A stretch of 64,000 nucleotides of DNA from a virus (IMGVR_UViG_3300028805_000080), one strand, 5' to 3'. Positions 11,238-59,403 are shown, counted from the first letter of the stretch. Notes: a model not told the origin generated them from the letters alone. Translations and numbers: made by a program.

Positions 11238-11251
11238 AATATATACTTTCA

Positions 11252-11300: not shown

Positions 11301-11307
11301 TTCAAAT

Positions 11308-12238: not shown

Positions 12239-12240
12239 AT

Positions 12241-12873: not shown

Positions 12874-12875
12874 TT

Positions 12876-13151
12876 ATGATTAATCATGAAACATTAGGAG
12901 CACATATAAGAAATATTCTTAGTCCTTATGCTAATATAATTCAGATTCTCGAAGAGTTACATTCTGAAAAGACAGATGAAAAGACTAAGGAATTAATCAA
13001 GAATTATCTTCTTAATGAAATCAATCCATTTGATCTTAAGAAAAATCTAGATCATTTTATTGATGTTTCAAATCTAAAAGAAGTAGAATCAATTAATTGG
13101 AGAGCTACAGAACTTTGTGAAAGATATTATAAAGAAATTGAGAATAGTTAA
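12876..13151 (+). CDS. Hypothetical protein.
   Basis: ORF only. Confidence 0.35.
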   Translation: MINHETLGAHIRNILSPYANIIQILEELHSEKTDEKTKELIKNYLLNEINPFDLKKNLDHFIDVSNLKEVESINWRATELCERYYKEIENS

Positions 13152-31211: not shown

Positions 31212-32894
31212 TTATATAAAAATAACATTTACAGGATCAAGACGTAATGATGTTTCTTTACCTAATGAAGAATTCTTATTTGGATAATACAATATATCTC
31301 CATGTAATAATCCTAAATAAAGATTGTTGTCAATAGATATATTTCCTATATTGTCTAATCCTAAATTCAAGTTAGTCTCATAATTATATCTTATCTTATC
31401 ATATCTTATTTGACCATTCAATAAAGTATTTGAATATTTATAATAATATCCATTATAGAATGCTTGTTCATTAGCTTCAGATATAATCTCTATATGTAAA
31501 GACTTTATATTTTGTACATGATCTAATATATATTTCACTATATCTGATTTTGATATGAAAGTAATATTATAATTCAATTTAGAAAAATATTTTATAACAG
31601 TATTTTGTACTTCTGTTTGTATAGTATCTTTATAATATAAATCAGTAGGCTTTATATAGCAAATTATAGAATATTTATATATAACTGGATCAATGAATTT
31701 CACTTGTATACCAGCAAAAGTATTGTTTGAATTCTTAAGTACGGTTATTATGTCATTCTTTTGCGAATTGGTCAAAATCAAATCTTTATCATTCAAGTCT
31801 TTATATTCAGAAATATCTTTTATATCTTTTATCTTATTACTAATAGCACTAATTATCAATGTATTAGAATTATTCTCTGTCCAAATATTAAAATTACCAA
31901 TAAATGAGAAATGCTTCAAGAATAATGTATAATTATCTAATGAAGCTAATACATTGCTTCTAGAATTATATCCTATCATTTTACGAACATCATCAATAGT
32001 ATCTGCATCAGTTCCTCCACTTATATAATTATTTATCTTGAGATTAATATAATTATTCAAATTGATTTGATTTCCATTATAGTCATATCCTCTATCTACA
32101 AAAGAAAAATTGACATTACTTATATTGTTTATGTTTCCAGATTTACCATTATGCAAAAGATATTCTACTTTGATATTTGATCCTCCTTCAGGTATTTTTC
32201 CATAAATTCCATTACCAAAAGTAATATCTAATTCATTATCAAATCCTCCACTAATGACATATTCTTCTCCATCTTGAGTCATATCATACATATTTGATAC
32301 CGGTTGCCATTCAATATTATTAACAAATACTTTTGTATAATTCTTATCATACATACCATTTACATTAATATGTATAGACTCTAATTCTTCTCCTTTAGCG
32401 GTATAGTTTGCTGTCTTTAAATATCCTTGAACAATCTTGAAGTCATAGTTTACCAATGGATAATTTATATCAAACACATATCTATCACTTTGTATATACA
32501 ATATATAATTCATATTATTCTCTGTATTTTGAATAGATATATGGTTATCAATATATATCTTACGTATTTCTTTTGAAAGATTTGTATTGCTAATCAAAGA
32601 AGCTGTCAATATTCCTGTAGCTGCTGATCCATAATAAGGCTCATATCCAGAAAGCTTAGCTAATGAATATATAGATTTCTTACGTACTGCTGTCTCAATA
32701 TTTTGTTCTGTGAAAGCATCTTCAATATATATCATAATATTTTGAACAATACCTTTCAATCCATTGAATATTATCTTGAAAATTTGATTATCACTATATT
32801 TTATACCTAAGTTAGAGAAAATCTTACTTAAGTATGTATTTACAGAATTATCAAAATTATTAAAATTAGTTTCTATTAATGTAAATAGTTTCAT
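31212..32894 (-). CDS. Putative baseplate wedge protein (gp6/J-like by position).
   Basis: Immediately downstream of the gp25-like gene. Called from size and synteny only. Confidence 0.3.
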   Translation of the reverse strand: MKLFTLIETNFNNFDNSVNTYLSKIFSNLGIKYSDNQIFKIIFNGLKGIVQNIMIYIEDAFTEQNIETAVRKKSIYSLAKLSGYEPYYGSAATGILTASLISNTNLSKEIRKIYIDNHISIQNTENNMNYILYIQSDRYVFDINYPLVNYDFKIVQGYLKTANYTAKGEELESIHINVNGMYDKNYTKVFVNNIEWQPVSNMYDMTQDGEEYVISGGFDNELDITFGNGIYGKIPEGGSNIKVEYLLHNGKSGNINNISNVNFSFVDRGYDYNGNQINLNNYINLKINNYISGGTDADTIDDVRKMIGYNSRSNVLASLDNYTLFLKHFSFIGNFNIWTENNSNTLIISAISNKIKDIKDISEYKDLNDKDLILTNSQKNDIITVLKNSNNTFAGIQVKFIDPVIYKYSIICYIKPTDLYYKDTIQTEVQNTVIKYFSKLNYNITFISKSDIVKYILDHVQNIKSLHIEIISEANEQAFYNGYYYKYSNTLLNGQIRYDKIRYNYETNLNLGLDNIGNISIDNNLYLGLLHGDILYYPNKNSSLGKETSLRLDPVNVIFI

Positions 32895-37501: not shown

Positions 37502-38092
37502 ATGGAGAATTTTCCTGTAGATTATATTGATAAAGAGACTGGTGAAAAGAAAGTAGCTTGGATTAGTCGTAGTGTAGCTGTTTCTGGTATTGTATTTTGT
37601 AAAGACCTAGATGGTGATTGGTGTATATTAGCTAATAAGCGTGGTAAAGGTACTCCAGATTTCCAAGGTTATTGGAATTGTATTTGTGGATATCTTGACT
37701 ATGATGAGAATGCTAATCAAGCAATGAATCGTGAGATATTTGAAGAGACAGGACTAGATATTCCTGGAAGAAGATTCATTCATTATTTTGTAAACTCTAA
37801 TCCTAAAGAGAATAGACAAAATGTAACTATTAGATTCTATTGTATACTTAAGTCAGATATTACAGAATGGAGTAATTTCTCAAAAGACAAGATGGAGAAA
37901 GATGAAGTAGCTGATATCAAATGGATTAAAGTAAAAGATATTAATGATTATCAATGGGCATTTAATCATAATGACTTGATTAATTATACATATAATACAT
38001 TTGTAAATATAAGTTGGTGGAAGAGAATTATTATTAATTGGTATAATACTCATATCATTAAGCAATTAGTTGAAAGTTTATATAAGAAATAA
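37502..38092 (+). CDS. Nudix hydrolase.
   Basis: Perfect Nudix box 'GYLDYDENANQAMNREIFEETGL' (Gx5Ex7REUxEExGU). Confidence 0.65.
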   Translation: MENFPVDYIDKETGEKKVAWISRSVAVSGIVFCKDLDGDWCILANKRGKGTPDFQGYWNCICGYLDYDENANQAMNREIFEETGLDIPGRRFIHYFVNSNPKENRQNVTIRFYCILKSDITEWSNFSKDKMEKDEVADIKWIKVKDINDYQWAFNHNDLINYTYNTFVNISWWKRIIINWYNTHIIKQLVESLYKK

Positions 38093-38628
38093 TGGATAAA
38101 GACAAATATTTACAATCTATAAAAGATGATAAGATCTATAAAGTAATGGATAATTATCTTCTTCAAATGTCACCATGGGAACATGGTGACAATCGTCGTT
38201 TATATGAATTTGAAGATGATGACTTTATGATTGTTACTTATCAAAATGCTTGTATGATTGTAAATAAACAATTTCTTGAATCTGATGAAGAATGGGAGCA
38301 TAATGGAAAACAATATATTGCACGTTCTTTAAAAAATAAGACAATAGAAGAACATACTGCAATGTTGAATATGCTTCCTTCTCATTATGTGAAAGATTCT
38401 ACAAAAGTAATGTTGACTACTCCTAATATTGATAACATATCTATTCAAGATATGCAAGGAAATACTTTCAAAATGGTAAAACATAAAGGAAAGATTTATT
38501 ATATGCTTATTATAAATTCTTTCTTACCAAAAGTAAATCTTTATGATACATTTGGAAAGTTTTGTCAAATAGTCAATATTAAGAATGTCAAGCCAATATT
38601 TAATGTAACTGATAGAAAATATATATAA
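38092..38628 (+). CDS. Hypothetical protein.
   Basis: ORF only. Confidence 0.3.
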   Translation: MDKDKYLQSIKDDKIYKVMDNYLLQMSPWEHGDNRRLYEFEDDDFMIVTYQNACMIVNKQFLESDEEWEHNGKQYIARSLKNKTIEEHTAMLNMLPSHYVKDSTKVMLTTPNIDNISIQDMQGNTFKMVKHKGKIYYMLIINSFLPKVNLYDTFGKFCQIVNIKNVKPIFNVTDRKYI

Positions 38629-38633
38629 ACAAT

Positions 38634-38873
38634 ATGGAGAATTTAGGAATATTTATTAAAAATCAAACAGAAGATATTCAAGATACTTATCCTAAAATAG
38701 AAGAGCTCCCTGATGGTAGTTATACAGGATTATTTTATGCATATACCTTTGAACTTCCTGACGGTAGAAAATTTAAAACTCCTTATGGAATAAAATGTGG
38801 TCGTTGGACAAATCATAAAGAAACTTTTGAAATTAAAGATCATAAATTAACTAATTATAAATATGACTATTGA
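38634..38873 (+). CDS. Hypothetical protein.
   Basis: ORF only. Confidence 0.3.
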   Translation: MENLGIFIKNQTEDIQDTYPKIEELPDGSYTGLFYAYTFELPDGRKFKTPYGIKCGRWTNHKETFEIKDHKLTNYKYDY

Positions 38874-39045
38874 AGATTTTAAAGATTATGATATATTTGT
38901 TGATTTTTCTAATGGAGATAAATTCTATTTAAAAGATTTTGAAATAGATGAAGTCAATAAAAAAATTATATTTAAAGGATCTCCTAGCCAAGCTAATTGG
39001 ATTAAAATTGATGCTTTATATCCTACTATGAAAAATATGAAATAA
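38863..39045 (+). CDS. Hypothetical small protein.
   Basis: ORF only. Confidence 0.3.
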   Translation: MTIEDFKDYDIFVDFSNGDKFYLKDFEIDEVNKKIIFKGSPSQANWIKIDALYPTMKNMK

Positions 39046-39051
39046 TTATTA

Positions 39052-41748
39052 ATGGCCATTTTAGATTTTATTGATTGTATAAATACATTTTCAAGTAATA
39101 TAAATATAAATATATCTTCCAGTTCTACTCTTACTAATTATCTTCAAGATATATATAATGAATGTAAAGATCAATATAATGGAACAACTAGAAATGGATT
39201 ATCATTATTTTATAATCAATCATTATTTCCTAATGTATATGATTATTTTGTAAATGATAGTTCATCTTTAGGAACTACTGATAATGCTATAAATTCATTA
39301 ATAGGATGGTGTATGGCATTAGTATTAACCGAAATTATACCTAAAAAAAGAAATACTATATTAAAAGTCGGATATGAATTAGGAGGATATGATAAAAATA
39401 GTAGATTATATGGATATAGCTTTAAAAAAGATCCAATGGTTGCTAGATTAGTAGCAGGAGCTATTTATGTTACAATGAGATCAACAAAAAATCCAGATAA
39501 AGCTACTATGAAAAGTGAAGTAGGAACTAATAGTGATGGTTGGAACTGGAGTTTTCAAAATGGATATGATACATCATCTACTGCAGTAGGAGAAGATAAT
39601 TTTTTTATTGATTTTAGAGGTTTTATGCCTACTGCGCCAGGTCCTAATCATTCTTCTAGTATACCTGATTCAAAAGATAGTTATAATAATATACAAGTTG
39701 ATAGAGATATTCATGAAAATACAATAGTACCTAATTATAATTTAGATAGTGGATCTTATCGTCAAGAAACTGCTCAAGCTATATCCGATAAAGATATGGA
39801 AGTTGAACATTATTTTGGATCTAGTATTACAGTTTCTGGATATACAATTAGTCCTATATTTGGATCATTACATAGTAAAATTGATCGTACCGATGGCTTT
39901 GGGAAGTTTATGCATTGGGTTACAAGAACTGGAATGGCATCTAGAAAAATTTTACAAAATACATCTGAATATTATAGATTTAGACCAGGATGTGGATGGG
40001 ATTCAGCTAATACAAAAAATTCAACTAGTGATGATAGACGTAATGCTTTAGCTGACTTTGATATAGAAGATAGTGATGGAAGTAAGGAATTTTGGGATGA
40101 ATCAGGTACTGGAATATCCCACTATTATTATGATGAAAATGGTAATTGGACTAAATCAGATATAAAATCTGCATCAGAATATAAAAATGCTCAACAAACT
40201 TCATTACATAATAATTCTTATCCTTCCGGACATTCATCTGGTATTTGGTGTGTTGGACAGACTTTAATGGAATTATATCCAAGTCAAGCTACTACTATTA
40301 TGCAAACTTGTAATAGATTTGCTATTGAGAGAACTATTTGTAGATATCACTGGACATCAGATACAATTATAGGAAGAGTATTAGGAAGTGCAGCTAATGC
40401 ATTATTACATGCTACAAGTGATTATGATACAATTAAAGGAGGAAATTATAGTTCTTTAACTAATCTTACATTACCATCAGGAGGATCTTCTGGTGGAGGA
40501 AGCTCTATTACAACAGAAACAGGTGATGCTAATTTAAATAATGAACCAACCGAAGTTAATAGAGAAGGTAATTTTTCTGCAACTGGCAAACATAATAGTC
40601 TTAGTGGTGGTTTAAATGCTGATGGAACAACTTATACATCACCAGAAGAATTAGGAACTATAACATTAATAAATACGACATTAGGAGTTCCTAGTATTCT
40701 AGGTATATATATAGCAGAAGGAGGATCTTCTATGTTGAATTTAGCAGATATTTTCATTGAACAACCTGTAGAAACTCCTAATACATTAACAATTAAAACA
40801 TCAAAAGTATTATCTAATGGAAATAATACATATCGTAGAGTTAAAGTAGCATTTGGATGGAATAGTGGAGCTATACAAGGTTATGTAAATGTATATCAAA
40901 AAGCTAATTCTGGATCTGGAGGAAGTGGAGGATCAGGTGGATCTGGTGGTGGTTCTAATGTAAATCCAAGTGGTGGCTCAACTGGTTCTAGTGATGATAG
41001 TGGAACTCAAGGATCAGATAATATTGGAGGAATAGGAAATATTAGACTATTAAAATATAAGAAAGATATTATTCATGAAGTAGCATCTAGAATATCTCCA
41101 ATAGATGATCTTCAAATATATGGACTTTCTTATAATGGACTTACTTTATATTCATATTTTCATAATGATATTTGTATTGACTTACAAGATTTATGGAGTC
41201 ATTATTATAATTTAAGAGTAGAATATGACAAACTTAAATTATTTTATGATAGCTATAAAACATGGGCAGATAATAATTTAGAAGATTTAAATACAATACT
41301 ATCTGAATTACCAGGTATTTATAATGCTATTAACCAAGCAAATAGTGATATTCCTGATTTTGATTATACTGAAACAGTAATAGATAGTATAACTGTTAAT
41401 GATGATGGTGATCCAGTAGTTTCATCACATACAGAAACACATTATCCATTTAGTGGATGGTCAATGGATAATTTTACAGTTTCTCAATTAAATGATAATA
41501 ATATTCCTGATCCTAATGATATTGATCCTCCAGTAGTTAATCTAGCTGAGCAAGGAAAGCTTTATGATGAATATACTTATACTTGGCATAAAGGATCATC
41601 AACTTATGGAATGCCTTATGAAGATGTGCAAATGCCAGATATAATTTCTTATGTGCCAACAATACAAAATTATTGGCAAGCACAAATCTATACTTATATG
41701 AAATGGAGTAACAATCAATTTGATAGTCATTATCCATTGACACCTTAA
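39052..41748 (+). CDS. Large modular protein with a PAP2/class-A acid-phosphatase-like domain and Gly/Ser linkers.
   Basis: '...YRFRP...', then 'SYPSGHSSG' (PSGH), then 'ERTICRYHWTSD' (R-x5-H-x3-D). Linkers 'GGSSGGGSS' and 'SGSGGSGGSGGSGGGS'. Confidence 0.45.
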   Translation: MAILDFIDCINTFSSNININISSSSTLTNYLQDIYNECKDQYNGTTRNGLSLFYNQSLFPNVYDYFVNDSSSLGTTDNAINSLIGWCMALVLTEIIPKKRNTILKVGYELGGYDKNSRLYGYSFKKDPMVARLVAGAIYVTMRSTKNPDKATMKSEVGTNSDGWNWSFQNGYDTSSTAVGEDNFFIDFRGFMPTAPGPNHSSSIPDSKDSYNNIQVDRDIHENTIVPNYNLDSGSYRQETAQAISDKDMEVEHYFGSSITVSGYTISPIFGSLHSKIDRTDGFGKFMHWVTRTGMASRKILQNTSEYYRFRPGCGWDSANTKNSTSDDRRNALADFDIEDSDGSKEFWDESGTGISHYYYDENGNWTKSDIKSASEYKNAQQTSLHNNSYPSGHSSGIWCVGQTLMELYPSQATTIMQTCNRFAIERTICRYHWTSDTIIGRVLGSAANALLHATSDYDTIKGGNYSSLTNLTLPSGGSSGGGSSITTETGDANLNNEPTEVNREGNFSATGKHNSLSGGLNADGTTYTSPEELGTITLINTTLGVPSILGIYIAEGGSSMLNLADIFIEQPVETPNTLTIKTSKVLSNGNNTYRRVKVAFGWNSGAIQGYVNVYQKANSGSGGSGGSGGSGGGSNVNPSGGSTGSSDDSGTQGSDNIGGIGNIRLLKYKKDIIHEVASRISPIDDLQIYGLSYNGLTLYSYFHNDICIDLQDLWSHYYNLRVEYDKLKLFYDSYKTWADNNLEDLNTILSELPGIYNAINQANSDIPDFDYTETVIDSITVNDDGDPVVSSHTETHYPFSGWSMDNFTVSQLNDNNIPDPNDIDPPVVNLAEQGKLYDEYTYTWHKGSSTYGMPYEDVQMPDIISYVPTIQNYWQAQIYTYMKWSNNQFDSHYPLTP

Positions 41749-41765
41749 AAATATTAAATTTATAT

Positions 41766-42335
41766 ATGCGAGATATATTTATTAGAAGTATTTTAGCTGG
41801 TATCTCTATTGGTTTAGGAGGAGCTATATTTCTTAAGCTTGGAGGAATTATTGGAGCAATTATGTTTGCTTTTGGATTATTGATAGTAGTTCACTTTAAA
41901 TTACCATTATATACAGGAACAGCAGGATTCATTGAAGTCAATAAGTTTCAAGAATGGCTTAATATGTTTATAATATTAATTGGAAACATTATTGGATGCT
42001 TCTTGTTATCATTATTGAATATAAAAGGAATTGATGGATCTCAAATAATCCAATCAAGAATAGATGGAGGATTATTGAATGGATTATTAATGGGTATTGG
42101 GTGTGGATTGATAATGACATTAATAGTTAAAGGAGGAAGAGATAAGAATCTTCTATTGATATTATTTGGAATTCCTTTATTTATTCTATTAGGATTCTAT
42201 CATTCAATTGCTGATGCTTTCTATTTTGCAGTTTCTAATATGAATTTAGAATATTTACCAATCTATTTTATAATTGTGTTAGGTAATTTTATTGGTTGTA
42301 ATATTCCTAGGATTTTAAAATATAATAAAGAATAA
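41766..42335 (+). CDS. Compact formate/nitrite transporter (FNT)-family channel-like membrane protein.
   Basis: Six hydrophobic helices. 'GFYHSIADA' resembles the FNT 'GFEHSIANM' signature. 'EWLNMFIILIGNIIG' and 'VLGNFIGCNI' resemble FocA segments. Confidence 0.45.
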   Translation: MRDIFIRSILAGISIGLGGAIFLKLGGIIGAIMFAFGLLIVVHFKLPLYTGTAGFIEVNKFQEWLNMFIILIGNIIGCFLLSLLNIKGIDGSQIIQSRIDGGLLNGLLMGIGCGLIMTLIVKGGRDKNLLLILFGIPLFILLGFYHSIADAFYFAVSNMNLEYLPIYFIIVLGNFIGCNIPRILKYNKE

Positions 42336-43533: not shown

Positions 43534-45462
43534 ATGAGCAACAAAAAGATTATTGGTATCGATCTTGGTACTACAAATTCATGTGTAGCCGTATTTGAAG
43601 GTGGCGAATCACAAGTTATTGTAAATTCAGAAGGTAAACGTACTACTCCTTCAGTAGTTGGTTTTACTAAAGATGGAGAACGTAAAGTTGGTGATGCAGC
43701 AAAGCGTCAAGCAATTACAAATCCGAATAATACTGTTTATTCTATAAAGCGTTATATGGGTATTACTTATGATAAGGTTAAAGATACAGATAAGAAGGTG
43801 CCTTATCATCTTATTAATGAAAACAACCTTCCTAAAGTGGATATTGATGGAAAGAAATATACTCCACAAGAAATTTCTTCTATGATTCTTACTAAAATGA
43901 AAAAGACGGCAGAGGACTATCTTGGAAATGAAGTTACTGAAGCAGTTATTACTGTTCCAGCCTACTTTGATGACCAACAACGACAAGCAACAATTGAAGC
44001 TGGTAAAATTGCTGGTCTTGATGTAAAGCGTATTGTAAATGAGCCAACTGCTGCAGCACTTGCTTATGGTATTGATAAGTCAGATAAGGATATGAAGATT
44101 GTAGTATTTGATTTTGGTGGCGGTACTCATGATGTATCTATTCTAGATTTTGGAAGTGGAGTATTTGAAGTATTAGCTACTGGTGGAGACACTCATCTTG
44201 GTGGTGATGATATTGATAATATTCTTATTAATTATATGGTTGATGAGTTCAAGAAAGATAAAGGTGTTGACTTGACAAAAGATCCAATGGCAATGCAACG
44301 ACTTAAAGAAGCTGCAGAAAAAGCAAAGATTGAACTTTCTTCATCAACAACAACAGAGATTAATCTTCCTTATATTACAGCTAATGAGAATGGACCTCAA
44401 CATCTAGTAATGAATATTACTCGTGCTAAGTTTGAACAATTGATAGATCCTATTATCAAGCGTACTATTGAGCCATGTCGTACAACTCTTGAGCAAGCAA
44501 AGCTTTCTACATCAGATATTGATGAAGTTATTCTTGTTGGTGGTTCTACTCGTATTCCGGCAGTTCAAGAAGCTGTAAAGAATTTCTTTGGTAAAGAACC
44601 TTCTAAAGGTGTTAATCCTGATGAAGTAGTTGCTATTGGTGCATCTATTCAAGGAGCTATTCTTAATAAAGAAGAAGGAGTAGGTGATATTGTTCTTTTG
44701 GATGTAACTCCTATTTCTATGGGTATTGAAGCACATAATCAATTTGATCCTGAAGGACGTATGGCAAAGCTTATTGAGGCTCAAACAACTATTCCTTGTC
44801 GTAAGTCACAAACATTTACTACAGCAGTAGATAATCAAACAGCAGTAACTATTGTAGTTCTTCAAGGTGAGCGTACTTATGCAAAAGATTGTAAGACTAT
44901 TGGTACATTTAATCTTGAAGGCATTGCACCAGCTAAAGCAGGTATTCCTCAAATCGAAGTAACATTTGATATTGATGCTAATGGTGTATTGAAAGTTTCA
45001 GCAAAGGATCAAGCAACTGGTAAGGAGCAAAAGATTACAATTCAAAACAATAATCTTTCTGATGATGAAATTGAAAGAATGAAAGCTGATGCAGAAGTTC
45101 ATAAAGAGGAAGACAAGAAACGAGAAGAATTGATGAATAAGTTGAATATGAGTCAAATGTTTATTAATTCTATTGATCAAGCATTGAATGATGATAATCT
45201 AAAAGATAAGATTACAGATGAAGATCGTAATAATATAACTTCTGCAAAGGATAATCTTGACACACTTCTTAAGGAATATCAAAAAGCAGAAAATAAAGAA
45301 GATGCTATGTCAAAGATTGAGGAAGCACAAAAAGCTCTTGAAGAAGCATGGAATCCAGTAGCTCAAAAGATTTATGCTCAAGCACAAGCTTCTAATCCTC
45401 AAGGAGCACAAGCATCTAATCCATTTGGAGATATATTCAATGGAGCAGGTAATACTCAATAA
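43534..45462 (+). CDS. dnaK: Hsp70 chaperone DnaK.
   Basis: '[14 protein letters not shown]', '[10 protein letters not shown]' and '[11 protein letters not shown]' are present. Full-length with a C-terminal lid. Confidence 0.9.
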
Positions 45463-45546
45463 TAAATATATAATTTAAACTCTCAATAGGATTCTCTTGT
45501 AGAGTCCTTATAATAAAAAAATTCAATATAATTGGAGGTAATTATT

Positions 45547-45990
45547 ATGAAAAATGCTTTAAGTTTTTGGAAACCAATGAATTTATTTGGTTTTAATGAT
45601 GATTGGTTTGATGATTTTAAAGATCCATTCTTTGGAATTTCTAAGACTTTTACCAATTCCCCTAAAGTAAACATTAAGGAAACTGATAAAGCGTATGAAA
45701 TAGAAATTGCCAATCCTGGATTTACAAAAGATGAGACAAAGATTAAGATTGAAGATGGAGTACTTTATGTATCAATGATTTCTGAGTCTAAAGATGAGAA
45801 AGAAGATGATCAAAAGTATCATGTACATCAATGGTCAAAATCTACTTATCATGAATCTTGGAAACTTCCTGAAAATGTAATTGAAGATCAAATTGTTGCA
45901 AAGAACAATGATGGAGTTCTTGTTATTACATTACCTAAGAAGGAAGAAGAGATTAAGAAAGTTGAATCAAGGACAATTGAAATTGAATAA
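45547..45990 (+). CDS. Hsp20/alpha-crystallin small heat-shock protein. Start is probably this ATG, not the track's upstream non-ATG start.
   Basis: 'VNIKETDKAYEIEIANPGFTKDETKIKIEDGVLYV...LPKKEEE' ACD pattern. GGAGG Shine-Dalgarno sequence 8-9 nt upstream of the ATG. Confidence 0.7.
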   Translation: MKNALSFWKPMNLFGFNDDWFDDFKDPFFGISKTFTNSPKVNIKETDKAYEIEIANPGFTKDETKIKIEDGVLYVSMISESKDEKEDDQKYHVHQWSKSTYHESWKLPENVIEDQIVAKNNDGVLVITLPKKEEEIKKVESRTIEIE

Positions 45991-46049
45991 TTTTATTAAG
46001 AGTTTAATTGGGATGGGACATGTCCCATCCCATTTTTAATTTTTAATAT

Positions 46050-47093
46050 ATGGCAAAAGATTATTATAAGATATTAGGTATAGATAAGAATGCTACTGAA
46101 GATGAGATAAAGAAAGCTTATCGTAAAGCTGCAGTAAAATGGCATCCAGATAGATGGACAGATAAGTCAGAGAAAGAAAGAAAAGAAGCAGAAGATAAGT
46201 TCAAAGAAATCACAGAAGCAAATAATGTATTGAGTGATCCTGATAAGAGAGCTAAATATGACAAGTTTGGTGATAATTGGGAGCAAGCTCATGGATTTGA
46301 TTTTGACTTTGGTGGCTTTGATGATATAATGGGTGATTTCTTTGGAAGAAGACGTAAACCTAAAGGACCTTATCCAGGTCAAACAATTACAATGAACTAT
46401 TATATTGATATTCATGATATATTCAATGGTGTCAATAAAGATATTGAGATTGATGTAGATGTAAGATGTCCAAGTTGTAATGGTACTGGTGGTGAAAGTG
46501 AGATTTGTAGTCATTGTCATGGTACTGGTATGATTTCAAGAACTAACAAGACTCCATTTGGTATTATTTCTCAAGAGTCACCTTGCCCATATTGTCATGG
46601 ATTAGGAAGAATAATCAAGAAGACTTGCTCAGATTGTCATGGAGCAGGAATGAAAAAGAAGACTAGAAAAATCAAGTTGAATATCAAACCATTTACCCAA
46701 AATGGATATCCAATGAAATTTACTGGTATGGGATATGAGTCAAAAGATCCTAAAGGACTTAATGGAGATTTGATTATTCAAGTAATTTATAATATTGATT
46801 CAAAGAAATATGTAATTCAAGGAAATACTGTATATGAGAAAATAACTATTCCATATTATGATTGTATATTAGGAACAACTATGAAAGTAAAGTTGCCTAA
46901 TAACAAAGAAAAAGAGATTACTATTAAACCACTTTCTAATAATGGTGATAATGTTGTATTATATAATGAAGGAATAAATGGAGGACAATATATATTTGTT
47001 ATTGAACCAGAATTACCAAAGAGAACATTAAGTAACAAGCTTTCTAATGAAGAGAAAGAACTATTAGAAAAGATTAAGAAATTACATAAATAA
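46050..47093 (+). CDS. dnaJ: Hsp40 co-chaperone DnaJ.
   Basis: J-domain 'DYYKILGIDKNATEDEIKKAYRKAAVKWHPDR'. Four CxxCxGxG zinc-finger repeats. G/F region. Confidence 0.85.
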   Translation: MAKDYYKILGIDKNATEDEIKKAYRKAAVKWHPDRWTDKSEKERKEAEDKFKEITEANNVLSDPDKRAKYDKFGDNWEQAHGFDFDFGGFDDIMGDFFGRRRKPKGPYPGQTITMNYYIDIHDIFNGVNKDIEIDVDVRCPSCNGTGGESEICSHCHGTGMISRTNKTPFGIISQESPCPYCHGLGRIIKKTCSDCHGAGMKKKTRKIKLNIKPFTQNGYPMKFTGMGYESKDPKGLNGDLIIQVIYNIDSKKYVIQGNTVYEKITIPYYDCILGTTMKVKLPNNKEKEITIKPLSNNGDNVVLYNEGINGGQYIFVIEPELPKRTLSNKLSNEEKELLEKIKKLHK

Positions 47094-48359: not shown

Positions 48360-50753
48360 TTAATCTGTAATATGTCCATCAACTATTGTTAAAGGATTAA
48401 ATGAAACATAGATTTCATCTGAACTTGTATGAGCAACATTATATCTACCAACTTTTACATAATTGTAAATATTATTTTGTGGAGTATTGATTACTAATAG
48501 AAGTTTTGTTCCTTTATAAAGTAATATATCACCAGGTAATAGATTCTTTGTCAATGAAGTGGTTTCATCATTATCTGTAAATATCTTGCTTGGTAAATTA
48601 ATTTCATAAGCAAATTTCTCTTTATTTTTAGTCAAAGTTATTCTATCAACCGATTCAAAATAATCTAAAAGATATTGTCCGCCAATATTATCATTTATAT
48701 TGAATTCAAATTCGGCTAAGTCTCCTTGATTATCATTTACTGGCATTACATATTCAATAGAAGTTCCATCAACATTAAGTTTCTCTTTATAATACATATA
48801 ATATTTCTTAATAAATGCAAGAGGATCTAATGTATATTGGAATTTAATTGGTTTAGAATTTGAAGTATATTTACCAGTTTCCATAATTTCATCACCAAAA
48901 GCATTACGTAACTTTAGATATTCTTTTCTTGTCAAATCATGAGAATCTTGTCCTACAATAGATATATTACCACTAAATTCATTCAATCCAATATATTTTA
49001 ATTTCAATACATCATTTACTTTATAGTTTATAAAATTGATACCAACAAGATTTGTATTATTGACAATACCATCTTTTAATATTGATATTTCTTTTCCTTC
49101 AACTTGTGTATTATCGAGAATATCTACCCAAGTCTTAATGAATGATTGAATATTCAAACCAGCACCACTTACATTATTCAAAGTTACATTTATCAAATTA
49201 GATGTTGGAGTATAATTGAACTCATCGATTTGAATATTCTTTAATGATAATGTATTCAATGTTTCTGGTAATGATATATATTCAAATTCAAGATTTTGTT
49301 TAGGAATAAATGATTTGATATTACTTCCAATAGCATTGAATATCTTAAGATTAGATAATTTATTCAATGTAAAATCTTTCTTCAAATTAGAACAATTTAC
49401 AATATCAATTTCTTTAAGAGACTTTAGATTACTAATACCATAAATTTCTTCTATAGGACTTTCATAATCCATTGAGCCAATACGTAAATATTCAAGATTA
49501 GAAACATTATTATTTTCAATTATCCAGTTAGTATTTGTAGTCTCATATACATTAATCTTCTTATCATATTTATTGATAAGATTAATCTTCTTTATATTAT
49601 TAGAAATACTTGTAAAATCTAATCCTTTAATATTTTCTGGATTTACAATATCAAATGTTTGTATTTCTTCAAGATCTTCTAAATTACTAATATTGAATTC
49701 TGTCAAATCATCACATAGTTTATCTTGTCCACAAACTTTATTAGTATTTATATTTACATTGAAATAATTTTCATTCAATGGATCAACTTTTACTAATAAG
49801 TCATTTTCTTGTAAATTAGTAGTATCAATATCAAAAGTAATTCTATTATTGAACCAATTATTATATTTACTATTGAAATTGAAATAAGCATAAAGATTCT
49901 TATTATTCAAAGAATAAGTATTCAAGTTAAGGGTCAATACATTATCTAATTCAGATATAAAATAAGTCTTCAAATCTCCATATTCTTCAACAACTCTGCT
50001 AGTATTGTTTTCAAAGAATAATTCCATACGGTTATCAAATCTATTAATATCTGATATAGAATATGTATAATATGTATTGAATCCTGTATAAGTTTGATCT
50101 GTAGGAACATAAGCAATTGTACCATCAGCTAATGTAATTTGACGCATGATGTAACCAGTATAAGCAACATCATAAGCAATTTCCATATAGTTATAGTCTA
50201 CAAATTGATTACTAAAGTCATATGTTTTTGTCTCAAATCCTTCTGTAACTGTATAGATAGTATTTTCTCCTCTATAAGGATATTTCTTATGTGCATATGA
50301 TATTTCTTTAAGCTCTACATTATTCTTATAGTAATTAAGCTTATTGAATCTCATATCATTAACATTCAATAACAATTCAATTAATTTTTGAGATGGAATC
50401 ATATATGTATTATCAAAATCACTATTCAAGTCATCTTCATAATTATAATTGAAAGTAAGAATATTCTTATCAATTTTAATATCAACTTGATTATTCTTGA
50501 ACTTACCCATATATGATATAGTTGCATTGATAATATCACCAATATTATTATATTTAGTAGGATTTTCACCAAATATATTAGAAGGCATATTTGACCAATA
50601 ACTATTATTATCTCGTGTTAATGATAATTCTCCAAAATATGATGTTTCAGTGCCATATAGTCTATTCTCTACAGCATAAGCAGCTTCTTCAGCTTCTCTA
50701 CCAGAATAGAATGTGATATTTGGCAATACTGATACTGTTATTGTTTTATTCAT
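48360..50753 (-). CDS. Tail fibre / receptor-binding-like protein with leucine-rich-repeat-like segments.
   Basis: 'NLEYLRIGS...ISNLKSLKEIDIVNCSNLK...LSNLKIFNA' LRR-like periodicity. Asn/Tyr-rich. Adjacent to the fibre genes. Confidence 0.4.
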   Translation of the reverse strand: MNKTITVSVLPNITFYSGREAEEAAYAVENRLYGTETSYFGELSLTRDNNSYWSNMPSNIFGENPTKYNNIGDIINATISYMGKFKNNQVDIKIDKNILTFNYNYEDDLNSDFDNTYMIPSQKLIELLLNVNDMRFNKLNYYKNNVELKEISYAHKKYPYRGENTIYTVTEGFETKTYDFSNQFVDYNYMEIAYDVAYTGYIMRQITLADGTIAYVPTDQTYTGFNTYYTYSISDINRFDNRMELFFENNTSRVVEEYGDLKTYFISELDNVLTLNLNTYSLNNKNLYAYFNFNSKYNNWFNNRITFDIDTTNLQENDLLVKVDPLNENYFNVNINTNKVCGQDKLCDDLTEFNISNLEDLEEIQTFDIVNPENIKGLDFTSISNNIKKINLINKYDKKINVYETTNTNWIIENNNVSNLEYLRIGSMDYESPIEEIYGISNLKSLKEIDIVNCSNLKKDFTLNKLSNLKIFNAIGSNIKSFIPKQNLEFEYISLPETLNTLSLKNIQIDEFNYTPTSNLINVTLNNVSGAGLNIQSFIKTWVDILDNTQVEGKEISILKDGIVNNTNLVGINFINYKVNDVLKLKYIGLNEFSGNISIVGQDSHDLTRKEYLKLRNAFGDEIMETGKYTSNSKPIKFQYTLDPLAFIKKYYMYYKEKLNVDGTSIEYVMPVNDNQGDLAEFEFNINDNIGGQYLLDYFESVDRITLTKNKEKFAYEINLPSKIFTDNDETTSLTKNLLPGDILLYKGTKLLLVINTPQNNIYNYVKVGRYNVAHTSSDEIYVSFNPLTIVDGHITD

Positions 50754-50762
50754 ATATTATCA

Positions 50763-53450
50763 TTAATTAATTATATTTATTGTACATTTTTGACTTAAGT
50801 TAGTTCCATCAATAGTCTTTACAAATATTTCAGTTTCACCTTCTGATATACTTAAGATATTACCTAAATTATCAATAGTTGCTATTTCTGGATTTGTTGA
50901 TTCAAATGTAATATTTTGATTTGTTGTATTATCAGGAACTACTGTGGCAATTAATGAATAAGTCTCATTTACATTCAATGTCAATTGGGTATCTGATAAT
51001 AACAATTCTCTAGTAGGTATAGAAACATTTGCATTTATACTTGTAATGATACCACTATTATCATCGGCCATAGCATAAATCTTAGCTTTACCTTCACCTA
51101 TAGCTGTTACACGACCATTCATAACTTTGATTATATCTTCATCAGATGTGTACCAAATAAGTGTCTTGTTATATGCATCAGCAGGAGTAATTACATAAGG
51201 TATATTGTATTCATTACCAATATAAAGATCAATGTCATTTCCTTCATTCATCTCTATTGCTGTAATCAATGTTACAGAGCTTACATGACATCTAGCAAAA
51301 ACTCCACTTCCATCAGCAGCTTCAGCAGTTATTACAGCATCTCCTCCAGCAATTGATCTAACAAATCCAGTTTGGTCTACAGAAACTTTATCTGGATCAC
51401 TTGATGTCCAAATGATTGTCTTGTCATCAGCATCATCATTTACTGTAGCTTCTAATTGATAAGTATCTCCTAAGTCAAGTGATACTACAGATTCATTCAA
51501 TTCTAAGCTTCTTACAGGAGTATAGCTAATTATTGTAACGTAAGTATGAACATCTGATCCATCCTTTGGTGAAACAACAATTTCAGTATTTGTCTTAGAA
51601 CTAATATATATTCTACCATCTATACCATTAGTTTCATTACCAATAGATACTGAACTATTTGGAGTAACCACTGACCAATTAAGAGTCTTATTAGATGCAT
51701 TTTCTGGTCCTACTTCAGCTTCAATCTTAGTAGAATGTCCTACTAATATATTCAATGAATCTTTAACTTCAAACTCTTCAACATTAGGATCAGCTATTAT
51801 ATTGATAAGAGTATCATCAATAGTAAGCTTAGAATTTCCTTGTTGAGCTAAAGTAATAGTCTTAGTTCTATTGTTTAATGTAAGATTACTTGAAATCTTG
51901 ATTATAGAATCATCTTTCATAATTTCTTCTCCAAGTAATTCATTTATTGTTTCTTTATTCAATTGAGATCCAATATTACCAATAATTACTTTATTAGTAT
52001 TCTTTACATAAATAGTTTCAACAGCTGTATCAACTGTTACATCAATACGACTAATAATATCACTACCATCGGTAGACTCAGCATAAATTGTTACACGACC
52101 TTCAGAGTTCAATGTAATCTTACCAGTCTCATCAACAGTGGCAATTTCATCATCGCTAGAATACCAATTGATTGTTGGGTTTGTAGCATCTTCAGGAACA
52201 ACTGTAGCATGTATTTGTTGCTCATATCCCTTGAATGCTTTAATAGTTGTTGTATCAAATAATATATCAATTACTGGAATTACAACATTAATATTTATTG
52301 TGGCAAATATACTTGAATTTTCTTCTGAGTAAATCTTGATGCTTGTTTCTCCACGCTTACCTAATGCCATAATTCTACCATCTTCAAATACCTTAACCAT
52401 CTCTTCATCATATTCAATACATATTGGTGAATTAAGATAATCAGTAGGTAATATATCAATACTCTTTGTAATGATTGAATTGATAGGTAATGTGATATTT
52501 GGATTAACAACTGTAATACTAGTAATTGGTTTATGAAGTATGACAATTTCTTCTTCTTTAGGATCTTTATCTACTACTCCATCATCACCTAATTCTTCAT
52601 CACTATATATCAATGTAGCTTTGACATCTTCTGATTTAGTAACAAACTCTAAATCCATCCAAACCGGTATACTAACCTTCTCATATACCCACTCAGAAAC
52701 ACCTTCACCTGTATCTTCATTAGTAATAGTTGTCTTAAGCCATCTAGTATAGTATTCTCTATCTGGATTTCCAAGATAATAATCATTCCAAATATCAAAT
52801 GAAGAATTAGCTTCAACATAGTCATTCAATGTCTCATCGAAATAATAATATCTTTCATCAGCTTCATCTTCATAAGTCCAATATTTGATATAAGTCTTAT
52901 GATTTACATTGTCATTATGGATAATAAAAGTATTTTGATTATTATTTCTTGTTCTAAACTCTAAATCAATAAATACTTGCTCATTGAATCTAAGTTGATA
53001 TTCTTCATCAGTCATTATTACTTCAGATATTGACTTCAAGAAATCTTCTAATACTTTACCACGATAAGCAGACCAAACTTTAGTGCTATCATTTGTAACA
53101 TCATCATTAACAATAACAAGAACATCTTGAGCACGATTCAATACTTCTTGTTGATTGAAAGATTGACCTTTATCACCTTGAGGACCTTTGTTACCATCTT
53201 CTCCAGTTTCTCCTTGGGTACCATTATAAACATAAAGATATTGACTTTCATTAGTATCATAATCAATACGAATAGAATTCAAATGATCATTACCATCACC
53301 TAATTGATTGATACCAACGATTTTTCTACCTTTAATAGATGATAAATCAATTTTATAGTTACTTTTACCAGATGCAACAATAGTCTTACCACCAGTTATG
53401 AGTTTATATAGAATAGGTAAATCTGATAGTTTATTTACTTTTGTTATCAT
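50763..53450 (-). CDS. Tail fibre protein with a collagen-like Gly-X-Y segment and multiple Big_2 (bacterial Ig-like) domains.
   Basis: 'GETGEDGNKGPQGDKGQS'. At least four Big_2-like repeats, e.g. 'YQLEATVNDDADDKTIIWTSSDPDKVSVDQTGFV...'. Confidence 0.55.
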   Translation of the reverse strand: MITKVNKLSDLPILYKLITGGKTIVASGKSNYKIDLSSIKGRKIVGINQLGDGNDHLNSIRIDYDTNESQYLYVYNGTQGETGEDGNKGPQGDKGQSFNQQEVLNRAQDVLVIVNDDVTNDSTKVWSAYRGKVLEDFLKSISEVIMTDEEYQLRFNEQVFIDLEFRTRNNNQNTFIIHNDNVNHKTYIKYWTYEDEADERYYYFDETLNDYVEANSSFDIWNDYYLGNPDREYYTRWLKTTITNEDTGEGVSEWVYEKVSIPVWMDLEFVTKSEDVKATLIYSDEELGDDGVVDKDPKEEEIVILHKPITSITVVNPNITLPINSIITKSIDILPTDYLNSPICIEYDEEMVKVFEDGRIMALGKRGETSIKIYSEENSSIFATININVVIPVIDILFDTTTIKAFKGYEQQIHATVVPEDATNPTINWYSSDDEIATVDETGKITLNSEGRVTIYAESTDGSDIISRIDVTVDTAVETIYVKNTNKVIIGNIGSQLNKETINELLGEEIMKDDSIIKISSNLTLNNRTKTITLAQQGNSKLTIDDTLINIIADPNVEEFEVKDSLNILVGHSTKIEAEVGPENASNKTLNWSVVTPNSSVSIGNETNGIDGRIYISSKTNTEIVVSPKDGSDVHTYVTIISYTPVRSLELNESVVSLDLGDTYQLEATVNDDADDKTIIWTSSDPDKVSVDQTGFVRSIAGGDAVITAEAADGSGVFARCHVSSVTLITAIEMNEGNDIDLYIGNEYNIPYVITPADAYNKTLIWYTSDEDIIKVMNGRVTAIGEGKAKIYAMADDNSGIITSINANVSIPTRELLLSDTQLTLNVNETYSLIATVVPDNTTNQNITFESTNPEIATIDNLGNILSISEGETEIFVKTIDGTNLSQKCTINIIN

Positions 53451-55304: not shown

Positions 55305-55722
55305 AATAATGAAAGACTTGCAGAATGGAGATTTTGTATATATATTAAATGTAAATAAAGATCCAATGATTATACTAGATTGTATTATTCAAAATGTATT
55401 TACAAATGGACCAGGAATTTCTTCAATATATTCAAATAAGTTTAAAATCATATTACCTGATGGAAGTATTAGATATTTTTACTCAAATGTTCCGAATATT
55501 AGTTTTGGAAAATTTGAAATATATGATATAGAATATCCTGATTTAGATTATGATAAAGGAGATGAATATTTTATTTGTACTAATAGAGATTACTTGATTG
55601 ATGAATATATAAGTAATTCTAAGAAAGCAATTGATTATTGGGAAACTATTATAAAAAACTATACTGAATTACTAGAAACTGAAAAGAAAAGAATATTATA
55701 TATTGAACAACAAAGAATATGA
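55273..55722 (+). CDS. Hypothetical protein.
   Basis: ORF only. Confidence 0.3.
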   Translation: MKNFLEKQKYKIMKDLQNGDFVYILNVNKDPMIILDCIIQNVFTNGPGISSIYSNKFKIILPDGSIRYFYSNVPNISFGKFEIYDIEYPDLDYDKGDEYFICTNRDYLIDEYISNSKKAIDYWETIIKNYTELLETEKKRILYIEQQRI

Positions 55723-56309
55723 TAAAATGGAAAACCGGAGATATATTCAATACTTCTTGTAAGACAATTGTCAATACAGTAAATTGTGAAGGAGTAATGG
55801 GTAAAGGACTAGCATTAGAGTGTAAGAAACGTTATCCATTTATGTTTAAAGTATATCAATATGCTTGTGCTTATGGAAAGAATGGAACACCAGATCATCC
55901 TATATTAAAAGAAGGTGGAGATTTATATTTCTATTGGAATCCTAAAGCTAATAAAGATGAAGCTTGGTTACCATTTGATAATGAATTAGAGAAAATACTT
56001 CCTAATATTTATGAAGTATATGATAAGCACCATATATTGAATTTTGCCACAAAAGTATTTTGGAGAAATCCATCAAAATTAGAATGGATAGAAAGAGGAC
56101 TTTATAATTTTTGTATAAAAGATTATGAATATGGAGATATAAAACATAAATATTATAATTTAGGTCCAGATACTTATAATAAAGCATTGACTTCTATTGC
56201 ATGGCCAAAATTAGGATGTTCAAATGGAGGACTAAGATGGGAAGATGTAAAACAATTAATGATTAAATATTTAGATCCATTACCATTTGTTTGTGAAATT
56301 TATGAATAA
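55719..56309 (+). CDS. Macro domain (ADP-ribose binding/hydrolase) protein.
   Basis: 'GDIFNTSCKTIVNTVNCEGVMGKGLALE' resembles the macro 'GDIT..DAIVNAAN..L..GGGV..AI' pattern. 'IAWPKLGCSNGG' resembles 'iAfPaistG'. Confidence 0.5.
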   Translation: MIKWKTGDIFNTSCKTIVNTVNCEGVMGKGLALECKKRYPFMFKVYQYACAYGKNGTPDHPILKEGGDLYFYWNPKANKDEAWLPFDNELEKILPNIYEVYDKHHILNFATKVFWRNPSKLEWIERGLYNFCIKDYEYGDIKHKYYNLGPDTYNKALTSIAWPKLGCSNGGLRWEDVKQLMIKYLDPLPFVCEIYE

Positions 56310-58768: not shown

Positions 58769-59403
58769 TGCAATATAGAAGTAAATATTTAGAAATCAAT
58801 ATAAAGAAAAAGCAACATTTAGCTTTTGAGTTTATGCCTTATGGATTTGGATATGATAATCCATTATTAATAATTAAATTATTCATTATATCATTTTACA
58901 TTACATTACCATTTAAGATTAAAGAAAAAGATAGTGATATTAGTTATGGATTTATATTCTATGATTTAGATCATCCGCATTGGTGGCCAGATTGCCTACG
59001 AATTTCATTTGGAAATTATAGTAAGTCTTATGATATGCCTTGGCTATTAGTATTATTTGATACCCAATATGAATCTAATTTTGTTAAAGGAAATATTCAT
59101 TTAAAAGATACTAATAAAAATGATAATATATTTAAACAATCAGCAAGAATATTATTAAATAATGGAAATTCATTAGGGCTTAAATATTATAAAGAAACAA
59201 GAATCTTAAAAATGAAACCATTTGGGCATTATATAGAATTTAGGAAAAAAATTTTAAATGTATTAAATATAGAATATAATGAGCCAAATTATGATATAAG
59301 TGATAAAGGAAGAACTTTTGATATGATATTTTTTAATAAGAATGAAACTACACAAGAAGCTTTTGAAAGATATTGTAAAAAATATAATTTAAAATTAATA
59401 TAA
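58768..59403 (+). CDS. Hypothetical protein.
   Basis: ORF only. Confidence 0.3.
   Translation: MQYRSKYLEINIKKKQHLAFEFMPYGFGYDNPLLIIKLFIISFYITLPFKIKEKDSDISYGFIFYDLDHPHWWPDCLRISFGNYSKSYDMPWLLVLFDTQYESNFVKGNIHLKDTNKNDNIFKQSARILLNNGNSLGLKYYKETRILKMKPFGHYIEFRKKILNVLNIEYNEPNYDISDKGRTFDMIFFNKNETTQEAFERYCKKYNLKLI

Follow-up and report, generated by a model that had tools for sequence, protein, structure and literature searches.

The only viral member of the formate/nitrite transporter (FNT) family that we found described is a full-length focA gene, located beside nirA in a cyanophage and acquired from its host (Gazitua et al. 2021, PMC8115048). Formate itself is presented as the hydrogen donor and reductant of class III ribonucleotide reductase (RNR) where Mulliez et al. 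1995 is cited in PMC4493059 and PMC11226230. Here we consider a different kind of phage-borne FNT gene, found in a 64,000-nucleotide stretch of the virus IMGVR_UViG_3300028805_000080. This whole stretch, called the window below, corresponds to positions ~88.8–152.8 kb of a 321,221-bp ENA metagenome contig (ERZ27256871:k141_3950003). It encodes a 189-amino-acid (aa) FNT-family protein (41766–42335, + strand) and, just upstream of it, an 898-aa modular protein with a PAP2 phosphatase domain (39052–41748, +), both open reading frames (ORFs) agreeing with what an earlier note on the sequence had given. On balance, we favor the explanation that the short FNT channels formate to class III RNR, and that the PAP2 protein is a separate phosphatase at the periphery of the virion, the two being unrelated accessory genes.

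The 189-aa protein matches the Pfam family Form_Nir_trans (PF01226) with 57.3 bits against a gathering cut-off of 34.6, and the match spans residues 2–178, or profile positions 19–230 of 240. An AlphaFold2 (AF2) model of the monomer, built on 37 homologues (pLDDT 87.4, pTM 0.82), predicts six transmembrane (TM) helices, with the TM2 and TM5 breaks that are typical of FNT channels placed at residues 43–49 and 142–147. When this model was compared with the PDB by Foldseek, only FNT channels were returned at E<1e-3, with aquaporins coming next. The matches included HSC (3tdo), NirC (4fc4), FocA (3kcu, 3q7k and 9g49), and PfFNT (6vqr), at query-normalised TM-scores of 0.7–0.84. By sequence, neither the protein nor its family profile retrieved a solved FNT from the PDB at E≤1. 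The earlier note had proposed the FNT assignment on the strength of the string GFYHSIADA, which does occur at residues 143–151 (42192–42218, +), and the profile match and modelled six-helix fold bear the assignment out.

Work with profile-to-sequence alignment allowed the pore to be compared with that of Escherichia coli FocA (taken from NC_000913.3; hhalign probability 98.2%, E 5e-14). In this alignment, FocA residues F75, L79, L89, F202, and H209, the last being the central pore His, fall on F34, L38, L48, F139, and H146, while the omega-loop Thr T91 falls on T50 and the vestibule residue K156 on R98. The central His/Phe constriction that the note had singled out for checking is, therefore, present, with the His, the omega-loop Thr, and both Phe aligned to FocA. 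In the gene, L48 and T50 belong to an LYTG motif (41907–41918, +), H146 to the GFYHSIADA string, and F139 lies four residues upstream of that string. Among 51 diverse short FNTs (32–77% identical to the query), F34, L48, T50, F139, and H146 are invariant and L38 is conserved in at least 90%. R98 is invariant within the close clade of the window protein, and the position of FocA E208 is occupied by Tyr.

Compared with FocA, the phage protein does without the cytoplasmic N-terminal helix (residues 1–32), most loop residues, and about 30 residues at the C-terminus. The ORF cannot be extended upstream to recover the helix, since it begins 18 nt after the stop codon of the PAP2 ORF. Neither is it a FocA orthologue by the NCBIfam equivalog TIGR04060, where it scored 27.8 bits against a cut-off of 290.1; indeed, scores at this locus fell far short of the cut-offs for every equivalog or subfamily model concerned (FocA, fnt, PhoC, and SepP). 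The 189-aa protein is a minimal FNT-family channel protomer with a complete pore and is not an orthologue of any characterised channel.

The earlier note had called such a channel very unusual in a phage. In fact, short FNTs form a large family on uncultivated phage contigs and are absent only from the deposited phage genomes (INPHARED) and from PHROGs. By word-indexed search, the close clusters at 90% identity numbered 1,922, and the best 120 of these were 74–88% identical, 186–205 aa in length, and located on contigs of up to 460 kb. An exhaustive search of 50%-identity representatives found 2,132 clusters at E≤1e-3 and 1,149 at E≤1e-10, with most of the best 150 of the 2,132 clusters falling between 185 and 220 aa. 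IMG/VR held at least 41 short FNT loci on contigs of up to 435 kb, and BFVD held one short FNT of 191 aa (“Siphoviridae sp. ctTnV63”). All counts from such collection scans are lower bounds. By comparison, the species-representative genome collection (GTDB) gave only eight matches, all of them on contigs of rumen metagenome-assembled genomes (MAGs) and including a mis-binned 410-kb phage; the eight contigs are likely mis-binned phage DNA. Among 29 clusters that were looked up, no member came from a cultured organism and none lay on a contig larger than ~305 kb, and the only NCBI names were “MAG: ... [Bacteroidaceae bacterium]”, for a 27.6-kb contig, and “MAG TPA: Formate/nitrite transporter [Caudoviricetes sp.]”. 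Because the family was met on phage-sized metagenomic contigs only, without a member from a cultured organism, it appears to be virus-restricted. These proteins have been annotated automatically, but we found no discussion of the short viral FNT family in the searchable literature.

Clues to function came from the genes that accompany short FNTs in other viruses. When the ORFs on either side of FNT were surveyed in 36 IMG/VR loci of greater distance, NrdD turned up with its ATP-cone and glycyl-radical domains, as did the NrdG activase (a narrower FNT alignment was used for these locus searches, the wide one being too diverse). The order was nrdD-nrdG-FNT in three loci (L038, L039, and L046) and FNT-x-nrdD-nrdG in a fourth (L037), whose NrdD shares only 25% identity with the L038 protein. 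Viewed from the other side, with IMG/VR loci anchored on NrdD (±3 kb), a short FNT was located downstream on the same strand in 22 of 80 loci, and in four arrangements: nrdD-FNT-nrdG, nrdD-nrdG-FNT, nrdD-nrdG-x-FNT, and nrdD-x-FNT-nrdG. A second sample was defined only by the DNA motif of the NrdD active site. Of its loci, 65 extended far enough downstream to be scored, and 9 of them contained an FNT; 5 of these 9 were new contigs. Altogether, the linkage was seen on ~30 distinct viral contigs. Survival of a linkage through repeated rearrangement is a classical signature of functional connection. We found no description in the literature of an association between short FNTs and the class III RNR operon.

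Work has also been done on the type of NrdD involved, which was examined in detail for two FNT-linked lineages, the L038 type and L037. The best PDB relatives of the linked NrdDs include Prevotella copri NrdD (8p23, E 4e-111), 9d3x, and phage T4 NrdD, while the thioredoxin-type NrdD of T. maritima gave a local match only. The formate type is recognised by an Asn in place of the third Cys of the thioredoxin type, and the formate requirement of the P. copri enzyme has been shown experimentally (PMC11226230). In both linked lineages, TMGC408R (with the thiyl Cys of the finger loop), RGN428, and the glycyl-radical motif RVTGY are invariant, and C408 and N428 align with C416 and N435 of P. copri NrdD. 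As judged from these sequence features, the two lineages are of the formate-dependent type. A rough neighbor-joining tree, rooted on FocA and without support values, placed NrdD-linked FNTs at the base and nested the window's clade, which is linked to DnaK instead, among lineages that include the NrdD-linked L037 and L038. This topology suggests that the NrdD linkage is ancestral and that the FNT gene moved in the window's lineage.

A separate observation made in these loci is that otherwise intact FNT and nrdD genes can contain in-frame TAG (L065, L112, and L118) or TGA (L100) codons. This indicates stop-codon recoding, with alternative genetic codes in those phages, and standard ORF calling cuts the FNT genes of recoded phages down to 42–75 aa.

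Considering the pore and the operon linkage together, we infer that the short FNT would conduct formate (as formic acid) across the host membrane. An infected anaerobe would thereby stay supplied with formate for ribonucleotide reduction and phage DNA synthesis. The flux would most plausibly be uptake from the formate-rich rumen or gut, or re-uptake of formate that the cell has exported. The ancestral and most frequent genomic home of the family would be the nrdD-nrdG operon of a formate-dependent class III RNR, and the window's lineage, where the gene came to lie beside DnaK-Hsp20-DnaJ, would presumably have kept the same function. More tentatively, short viral FNTs might be a virus-specific lineage serving as the third component of phage class III RNR operons, that is, as a dedicated formate conduit.

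Several observations weigh against a formate channel in the window, and some of them would suit a channel for another small anion (nitrite, hydrosulfide, lactate, or acetate) with no relation to RNR and a role in detoxification or in pH and anion homeostasis. The substrate of an FNT cannot be read from its sequence, the best fold match is the HS− channel HSC, and some family members carry the name NirC in the IMG annotations of the Joint Genome Institute (JGI). Adjacency to NrdD has been lost in the window's clade, and no nrdD, nrdG, or other formate-using gene was detected by tblastn, or by Pfam on the window's ORFs, in contig positions 82,388–162,354, which cover the window plus about 6–10 kb on each side (80 of 321 kb). 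Among the matches listed, the search for relatives with the L037 NrdD and the motif scan of IMG/VR showed no overlap with FNT-anchored contigs, an outcome that does not amount to a negative. The conserved neighbors in the window's clade (chaperones, NUDIX, and a 178-aa protein) say nothing about formate, the N-terminal helix that serves FocA in gating and in coupling to PflB is missing, and the NrdD-linked FNTs are only 30–45% identical to the window protein. Against another anion stands the genetic company of the family: no nitrite- or sulfite-reductase gene was found beside any viral locus surveyed, formate-type NrdD/NrdG is the only recurrent enzymatic partner, and a DsrC-like match of the 178-aa neighbor is sub-threshold and was not reproduced. 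We consider such a channel unlikely. The earlier note had favored a holin-like gate, and a membrane-depolarising protein involved in lysis timing or superinfection exclusion would fit a small, very hydrophobic phage membrane protein; moreover, 2 of 140 flanking ORFs in other loci encode glucosaminidases. Nonetheless, the selective-pore residues that are invariant in the short-FNT alignment would be needless in a protein that merely forms holes, and no consistent link to endolysin or spanin genes was seen where linkage to nrdDG is consistent, which puts the gene among those of nucleotide metabolism instead of lysis. With nothing pointing to lysis, and with recurrent embedding in nrdD-nrdG operons pointing to formate supply, a holin-like role is very improbable.

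Class III RNR is the source of deoxynucleotides for many phages of anaerobes, and one formate is used per turnover. For a 321-kb genome and even a modest burst, this would amount to tens of millions of formate molecules per cell. If short FNTs are dedicated formate conduits, formate supply would be a rate-limiting, phage-controlled step of DNA precursor synthesis in anaerobes, and bacteria infected in the gut and rumen would either tap the formate outside the cell, in the interspecies pool, or cease to export formate of their own. Phage replication would thus be coupled to the formate and hydrogen economy that also feeds methanogens. A phage channel lodged again and again in nrdD-nrdG operons would give a first sign that phages control how class III RNR is supplied with reductant, and it would add a new type of auxiliary metabolic gene tied to formate turnover in the rumen and gut. 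The protomer of 185–200 aa would also be the smallest natural FNT, and as a natural channel without the N-terminal gate, it could be useful for FNT biophysics.

The second gene of interest encodes the PAP2 protein. Its match to Pfam PAP2 (PF01569) reaches 37.8 bits against a cut-off of 27.2, and class A acid phosphatases of known structure align over residues 381–456, with an E-value of 1e-11 when the single sequence is used and of 3e-21 with the family profile. The PDB entries matched are those of E. blattae (1d2t/1iw8), PhoC (9qcj), 8yc1, and PhoN (2a96). Structural comparison agrees, in that PhoN, PhoC, and the E. blattae enzyme are the best Foldseek matches of the module, at target-normalised TM-scores of 0.6–0.73. 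The motif strings that the earlier note quoted for its PAP2 assignment are all present, and PSGH and R-x5-H-x3-D align residue for residue with the E. blattae enzyme, PhoC, and PhoN, so this part of the note is sound in both identity and placement. Motif 2, YPSGHSS (residues 390–396; 40219–40239, +), aligns as SYPSGHSS with SYPSGHTS. Its PSGH (P391–H394) lies opposite the PSGH of 1iw8, 9qcj, and 8yc1, and H394 is the counterpart of the E. blattae proton donor His150. Motif 3, ERTICRYHWTSD (residues 426–437; 40327–40362, +), aligns with SRVICGYHWQSD and supplies R427, the nucleophile H433, and D437. The Ser that opens this motif is replaced by Glu (E426 here) or Asn in the phage family, and the 31 residues between H394 and E426 fit the pattern PSGH-X31-54-SRX5HX3D. 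Across the family, R311, N388–S395 (NSYPSGHS), R427, R431, H433, W434, S436, and D437 are invariant. The invariance of the catalytic residues argues that a histidine-phosphatase machinery is under selection.

Motif 1 is reduced to a remnant, RFRP (residues 309–312; 39976–39987, +), in which R309 and R311 are invariant and P312 nearly so; the sequence alignments to solved enzymes stop short of it. The Lys of KX6RP appears to be missing; by linear comparison with the E. blattae motif, its position, seven residues before R311, is occupied by T304. This loss may be offset by R431, the additional invariant Arg that precedes the nucleophile by two residues, and R298 and R309 are further candidates for filling the site. 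As for known subfamilies, the NCBIfam PhoC equivalog scored 85.2 bits against a cut-off of 430, well below the level of the stand-alone secreted PhoC/PhoN enzymes of about 25 kDa. PgpB appeared only at a Foldseek E of 0.7, and the model for the undecaprenyl-diphosphatase SepP scored 12.7 bits against a cut-off of 250. No segment of the 898-aa protein reaches a Kyte–Doolittle hydropathy of 1.6, which marks it as soluble, without a signal peptide or TM helix. The earlier note had suggested undecaprenyl pyrophosphate (C55-PP) or lipid A as substrates, but the module is a soluble domain of the class A kind, lacking any hydrophobic segment, and not a lipid phosphatase embedded in the membrane; action on either lipid inside the membrane is therefore unlikely.

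The catalytic residues belong to a conserved module of ~460 aa (residues 1–470; 39052–40461, +), delimited by its homologues and by the AF2 model, in which pLDDT is mostly 85–98 within the module and below 50 in the rest of the protein. The module contains a degenerate half-copy of itself (residues 86–156; 39307–39519, +), which hhalign matched to the motif-3 helices at residues 399–464 (probability 91.6%, E 8e-7). The half-copy is without PSGH and has Ser at the position of the nucleophile His (NSRLYGYSFKKD). The module is, then, a pseudo-tandem with one live active site, the N-terminal half-copy packing onto the catalytic domain. Beyond it come a Gly/Ser linker (PSGGSSGGGSS, residues 475–485; 40474–40506, +) modelled at pLDDT below 50, a middle domain (residues 486–618; 40507–40905, +), a second Gly/Ser-rich linker (residues 619–652; 40906–41007, +), and an orphan C-terminal domain with a low-confidence model (residues 653–898; 41008–41748, +). 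The middle domain is predicted, at low confidence, to be all-beta and possibly Ig-like, with strands at residues 509–613 (pLDDT 30–50) and only weak Ig-domain fold matches (E >0.3). No homologue of the C-terminal domain (residues 660–898; 41029–41745) was found at E≤1e-3 in a collection of 5.8 billion protein clusters. Although the gene is called on the source contig, the 898-aa protein itself was not returned as a self-match in either homology search. The note's picture of a PAP2 domain flanked by (GGS)n linkers needs correcting, as the linkers flank the middle domain and the PAP2 module makes up the N-terminal 470 residues.

Homologues of the protein occur in more than 120 listed clusters of 505–1,545 aa, which cover only about residues 1–470 of the query at 34–47% identity, and 28 of 29 family members have a PAP2 Pfam match. 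The fusion partners of the module in these homologues are Big_2 and other Ig-like domains, BACON, the viral BACON_2, tail Collar, and Gp10_C. Baseplate wedge genes neighbor the PAP2-module genes in three loci, and endolysins do so in three. In several huge-phage genomes, the module is found in at least two paralogous genes, which can lie in tandem. Pairs were observed on contigs of 435 kb (L286 and L307), 412.5 kb (L289 and L300), and 129.5 kb (L291 and L296), and L287 and L288 are tandem ORFs. Modular huge-phage proteins that share this module make up a multi-copy family that had gone without annotation, and their histidine-phosphatase site is apparently intact.

The arrangement of the locus bears on the relationship between the two genes. 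In the window's clade, the gene order is NUDIX, the 178-aa gene, a variable slot, FNT, (ADP-ribosylglycohydrolase), DnaK, Hsp20, and DnaJ. Of the conserved neighbors, the NUDIX gene (37502–38092, +) and the 178-aa gene of unknown function (38092–38628, +) lie upstream, and the DnaK-Hsp20-DnaJ cluster (43534–47093, +) lies downstream, with a strong terminator-like hairpin (46009–46032) after Hsp20. The chaperone set is complete and phage-encoded, with 50–89% identity across related huge phages. The slot between the 178-aa gene and FNT (38629–41765) holds the PAP2 gene and two small ORFs in the window, an ADP-ribosylglycohydrolase and a 50-aa ORF in L001 (7034–8004), a GT2 glycosyltransferase in L005 (6898–7986), and no large gene in L025 and L028. 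It looks like a hotspot for accessory genes. The earlier note had implied a pairing of the PAP2 protein with the channel, and a functional pair, for instance in phosphate or anion handling at the membrane, might be suspected from genes that are on the same strand, 18 nt apart, with no strong terminator-like site between them. This adjacency is, however, particular to the window, being seen in none of ~60 other FNT loci and none of ~28 other PAP2-module loci, and relatives fill the PAP2 slot with other genes. The comparative context therefore largely refutes a functional pair, which we regard as barely credible; the two are unrelated accessory genes that became neighbors by chance, in the variable slot of one long same-strand block. 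The 435-kb contig with two PAP2-module copies also has a short FNT (L048), at an unrelated position.

As to what the PAP2 protein does, we favor a soluble, flexibly tethered histidine phosphatase (phosphomonoesterase) that would sit on the virion periphery, in the baseplate or fiber region, and act on a phosphorylated substrate of the host surface or the environment. The earlier note's view of a virion-associated protein is made plausible by the Big_2, BACON, Collar, and Gp10_C domains of homologues. A virion-borne PAP2 protein would represent a new class of phage surface enzyme. Some features speak against this picture. The gene occupies a variable slot among metabolic and anti-defence-type genes, the C-terminal half of the protein was modelled poorly, the module is C-terminal in most homologues and N-terminal here, and catalysis could be lowered or altered by the lack of the motif-1 Lys, at a position that varies within the family. 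The virion location, moreover, is a prediction from fusion domains and neighboring baseplate genes.

The genomic surroundings would also agree with an intracellular accessory or counter-defence phosphatase, acting for example on nucleotides or nucleotide-derived signals and not forming part of the virion. The slot holds ADP-ribosylglycohydrolase or glycosyltransferase genes in relatives; NUDIX, Macro, Acb3, nicotinamide adenine dinucleotide (NAD) synthase, and NMNAT-like genes surround it; the family is mobile and multi-copy per genome; and the protein has no signal peptide. Fusions to Big_2, BACON, tail Collar, and Gp10_C are nevertheless typical of virion-exposed proteins, cytoplasmic enzymes seldom have long Gly/Ser linkers or a middle domain of the Ig-like kind, and a nonspecific phosphatase in the cytoplasm would deplete nucleotides, all of which makes an intracellular role the less likely explanation, though a serious rival. 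Vanadium haloperoxidases have a two-lobed helical architecture that is thought to derive from duplication. The two-lobed, pseudo-tandem layout of the module recalls them, and this likeness, together with the missing motif-1 Lys and the extra invariant R431, raises the idea of a non-phosphatase, either a vanadate-dependent haloperoxidase or a phosphate- or oxyanion-binding domain for receptor recognition. In the module, though, no variation is seen at the two catalytic His (nucleophile and proton donor), at either Arg, or at the Asp, and the top fold matches are all acid phosphatases, with no haloperoxidase structure among the 50 best. A non-phosphatase is improbable, and its haloperoxidase version was kept as a minor rival only.

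The source of the window is a huge uncultivated rumen myovirus-like phage. Close relatives of the window are contigs of 388–410 kb from rumen datasets, and ERZ1024276:scaffold_3 is also a relative. One of the close relatives, the 410,106-bp contig ONIZ01000001.1 (L015), was deposited as the MAG “uncultured Firmicutes bacterium RUG343” and is a huge-phage genome syntenic with the window; it is identical to IMGVR_UViG_2799112330_000002 (L023) and to ERZ1063406:scaffold_25 (L001). It is the occurrence of the same contig as an IMG/VR viral genome, along with the size of its relatives, that identifies the element as a phage of this kind. MAG binning labels (Bacteroidales and Prevotellaceae) and the BACON domains give a weak hint of a Bacteroidales host. 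Phage hallmarks in the window include a baseplate wedge subunit (31212–32894, −), an Ig-rich structural protein, helicases, and topoisomerase II subunits, and the window also encodes the chaperone cluster and NAD-metabolism genes. The baseplate genes end 2.4 kb upstream of the PAP2 gene, on the opposite strand. GC content is ~26% across the whole window, no tRNA genes were found in it, and a promoter scan of the window was uninformative (80 sites versus 82.7 expected). In INPHARED, DNA and protein searches found no match to the region, the FNT protein, or the C-terminal domain, and the only match to the PAP2 module was a 74-aa fragment; PHROGs has no family for the PAP2 protein, the FNT protein, or the small neighboring ORFs.

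Several other features of the window and its relatives are worth recording. The 178-aa protein is the most consistent upstream neighbor of FNT in the clade, with 61–77% identity in at least six IMG/VR loci, and no Pfam, PHROG, or PDB match rose above threshold. A DsrC-like match, which would have favored a sulfide channel, was sub-threshold (E 0.13) and without support from PHROGs or the PDB, and was set aside as chance. In L001, the DnaK gene appears to be split (9536–13001), with HSP70 fragments of 207 aa (N-terminal) and 456 aa (C-terminal) on either side of a 373-aa ORF without a Pfam match. This ORF could be an intervening mobile element of the intron or homing-endonuclease type. The window is rich in genes related to NAD and ADP-ribose and in counter-defence-type genes (at 4732–7988, 37502–38092, 55719–56309, and 58768–59403), comprising IMPDH/GMP-reductase-like, NAD synthase, cytidylyltransferase-like (NMNAT-type), NUDIX, and Macro domain genes and an Acb3-like inhibitor of CBASS (cyclic oligonucleotide-based anti-phage signalling system). 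Relatives additionally carry NAPRTase and ADP-ribosylglycohydrolase. Upstream of the Acb3-like and topoisomerase II subunit genes, a 416-aa ORF (57518–58768, +) matches sigma-70 region 2 and may be a phage-encoded sigma factor. Finally, two large structural-type ORFs within 48360–53450 (−) may be real adhesin or fiber genes of the phage; one, of 797 aa, has an EndoS-like leucine-rich repeat match just under threshold, and the other is the Ig-rich structural ORF (50763–53450, −), with 895 aa and four Big_2 repeats.

How do the two proteins compare with the systems already known? Like the class A acid phosphatases, the phage module has PSGH and R-x5-H-x3-D, an all-helical fold, and a soluble nature. 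The known enzymes, however, are secreted, periplasmic, homo-oligomeric proteins of ~230 aa, whereas the module has a degenerate half-copy fused to it, an insertion of ~60 aa between motifs 1 and 2, no motif-1 Lys, an extra invariant Arg, and no signal peptide, and it is embedded in proteins of 500–1,500 aa. The membrane PAP2 lipid phosphatases (PgpB, LpxE/LpxF, and BcrC) belong to the same superfamily and share the catalytic motifs, yet they are integral membrane proteins, unlike the phage protein. Vanadium-dependent haloperoxidases have active-site motifs in common with the module, although they are absent from its best fold matches. The module represents a new, pseudo-tandem form of these enzymes, found in modular phage proteins, and the 898-aa protein is not an orthologue of any characterised enzyme.

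For the short FNT, the FocA of E. coli and Salmonella offers a shared aquaporin-like fold of six TM helices, the same pore residues, and formate, the substrate proposed here for the phage channel. FocA has 285 aa and an N-terminal helix, whereas the phage protein has 189 aa, no such helix, and shorter loops and C-terminus; the genetic partner of FocA is pflB, and that of the phage channels is nrdDG. HSC of C. difficile (3tdo) and NirC (4fc4) are the best structural matches (query-normalised TM-scores of 0.81–0.84), but they are only 16–20% identical, are ~70 residues longer, and are linked to sulfite or nitrite reductase operons, none of which was seen near the viral genes surveyed. The cyanophage focA is the nearest parallel in a virus, since it too is a phage-borne FNT auxiliary metabolic gene beside an enzyme that uses the transported anion. 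That gene is full length and a recent host copy, 86% identical to Prochlorococcus FocA and with a C-terminal regulatory region, and nitrite has been proposed as its substrate (PMC8115048). The FNT described here, by contrast, comes from a family of short proteins that have diverged deeply, are apparently confined to viruses, and show linkage to NrdD.

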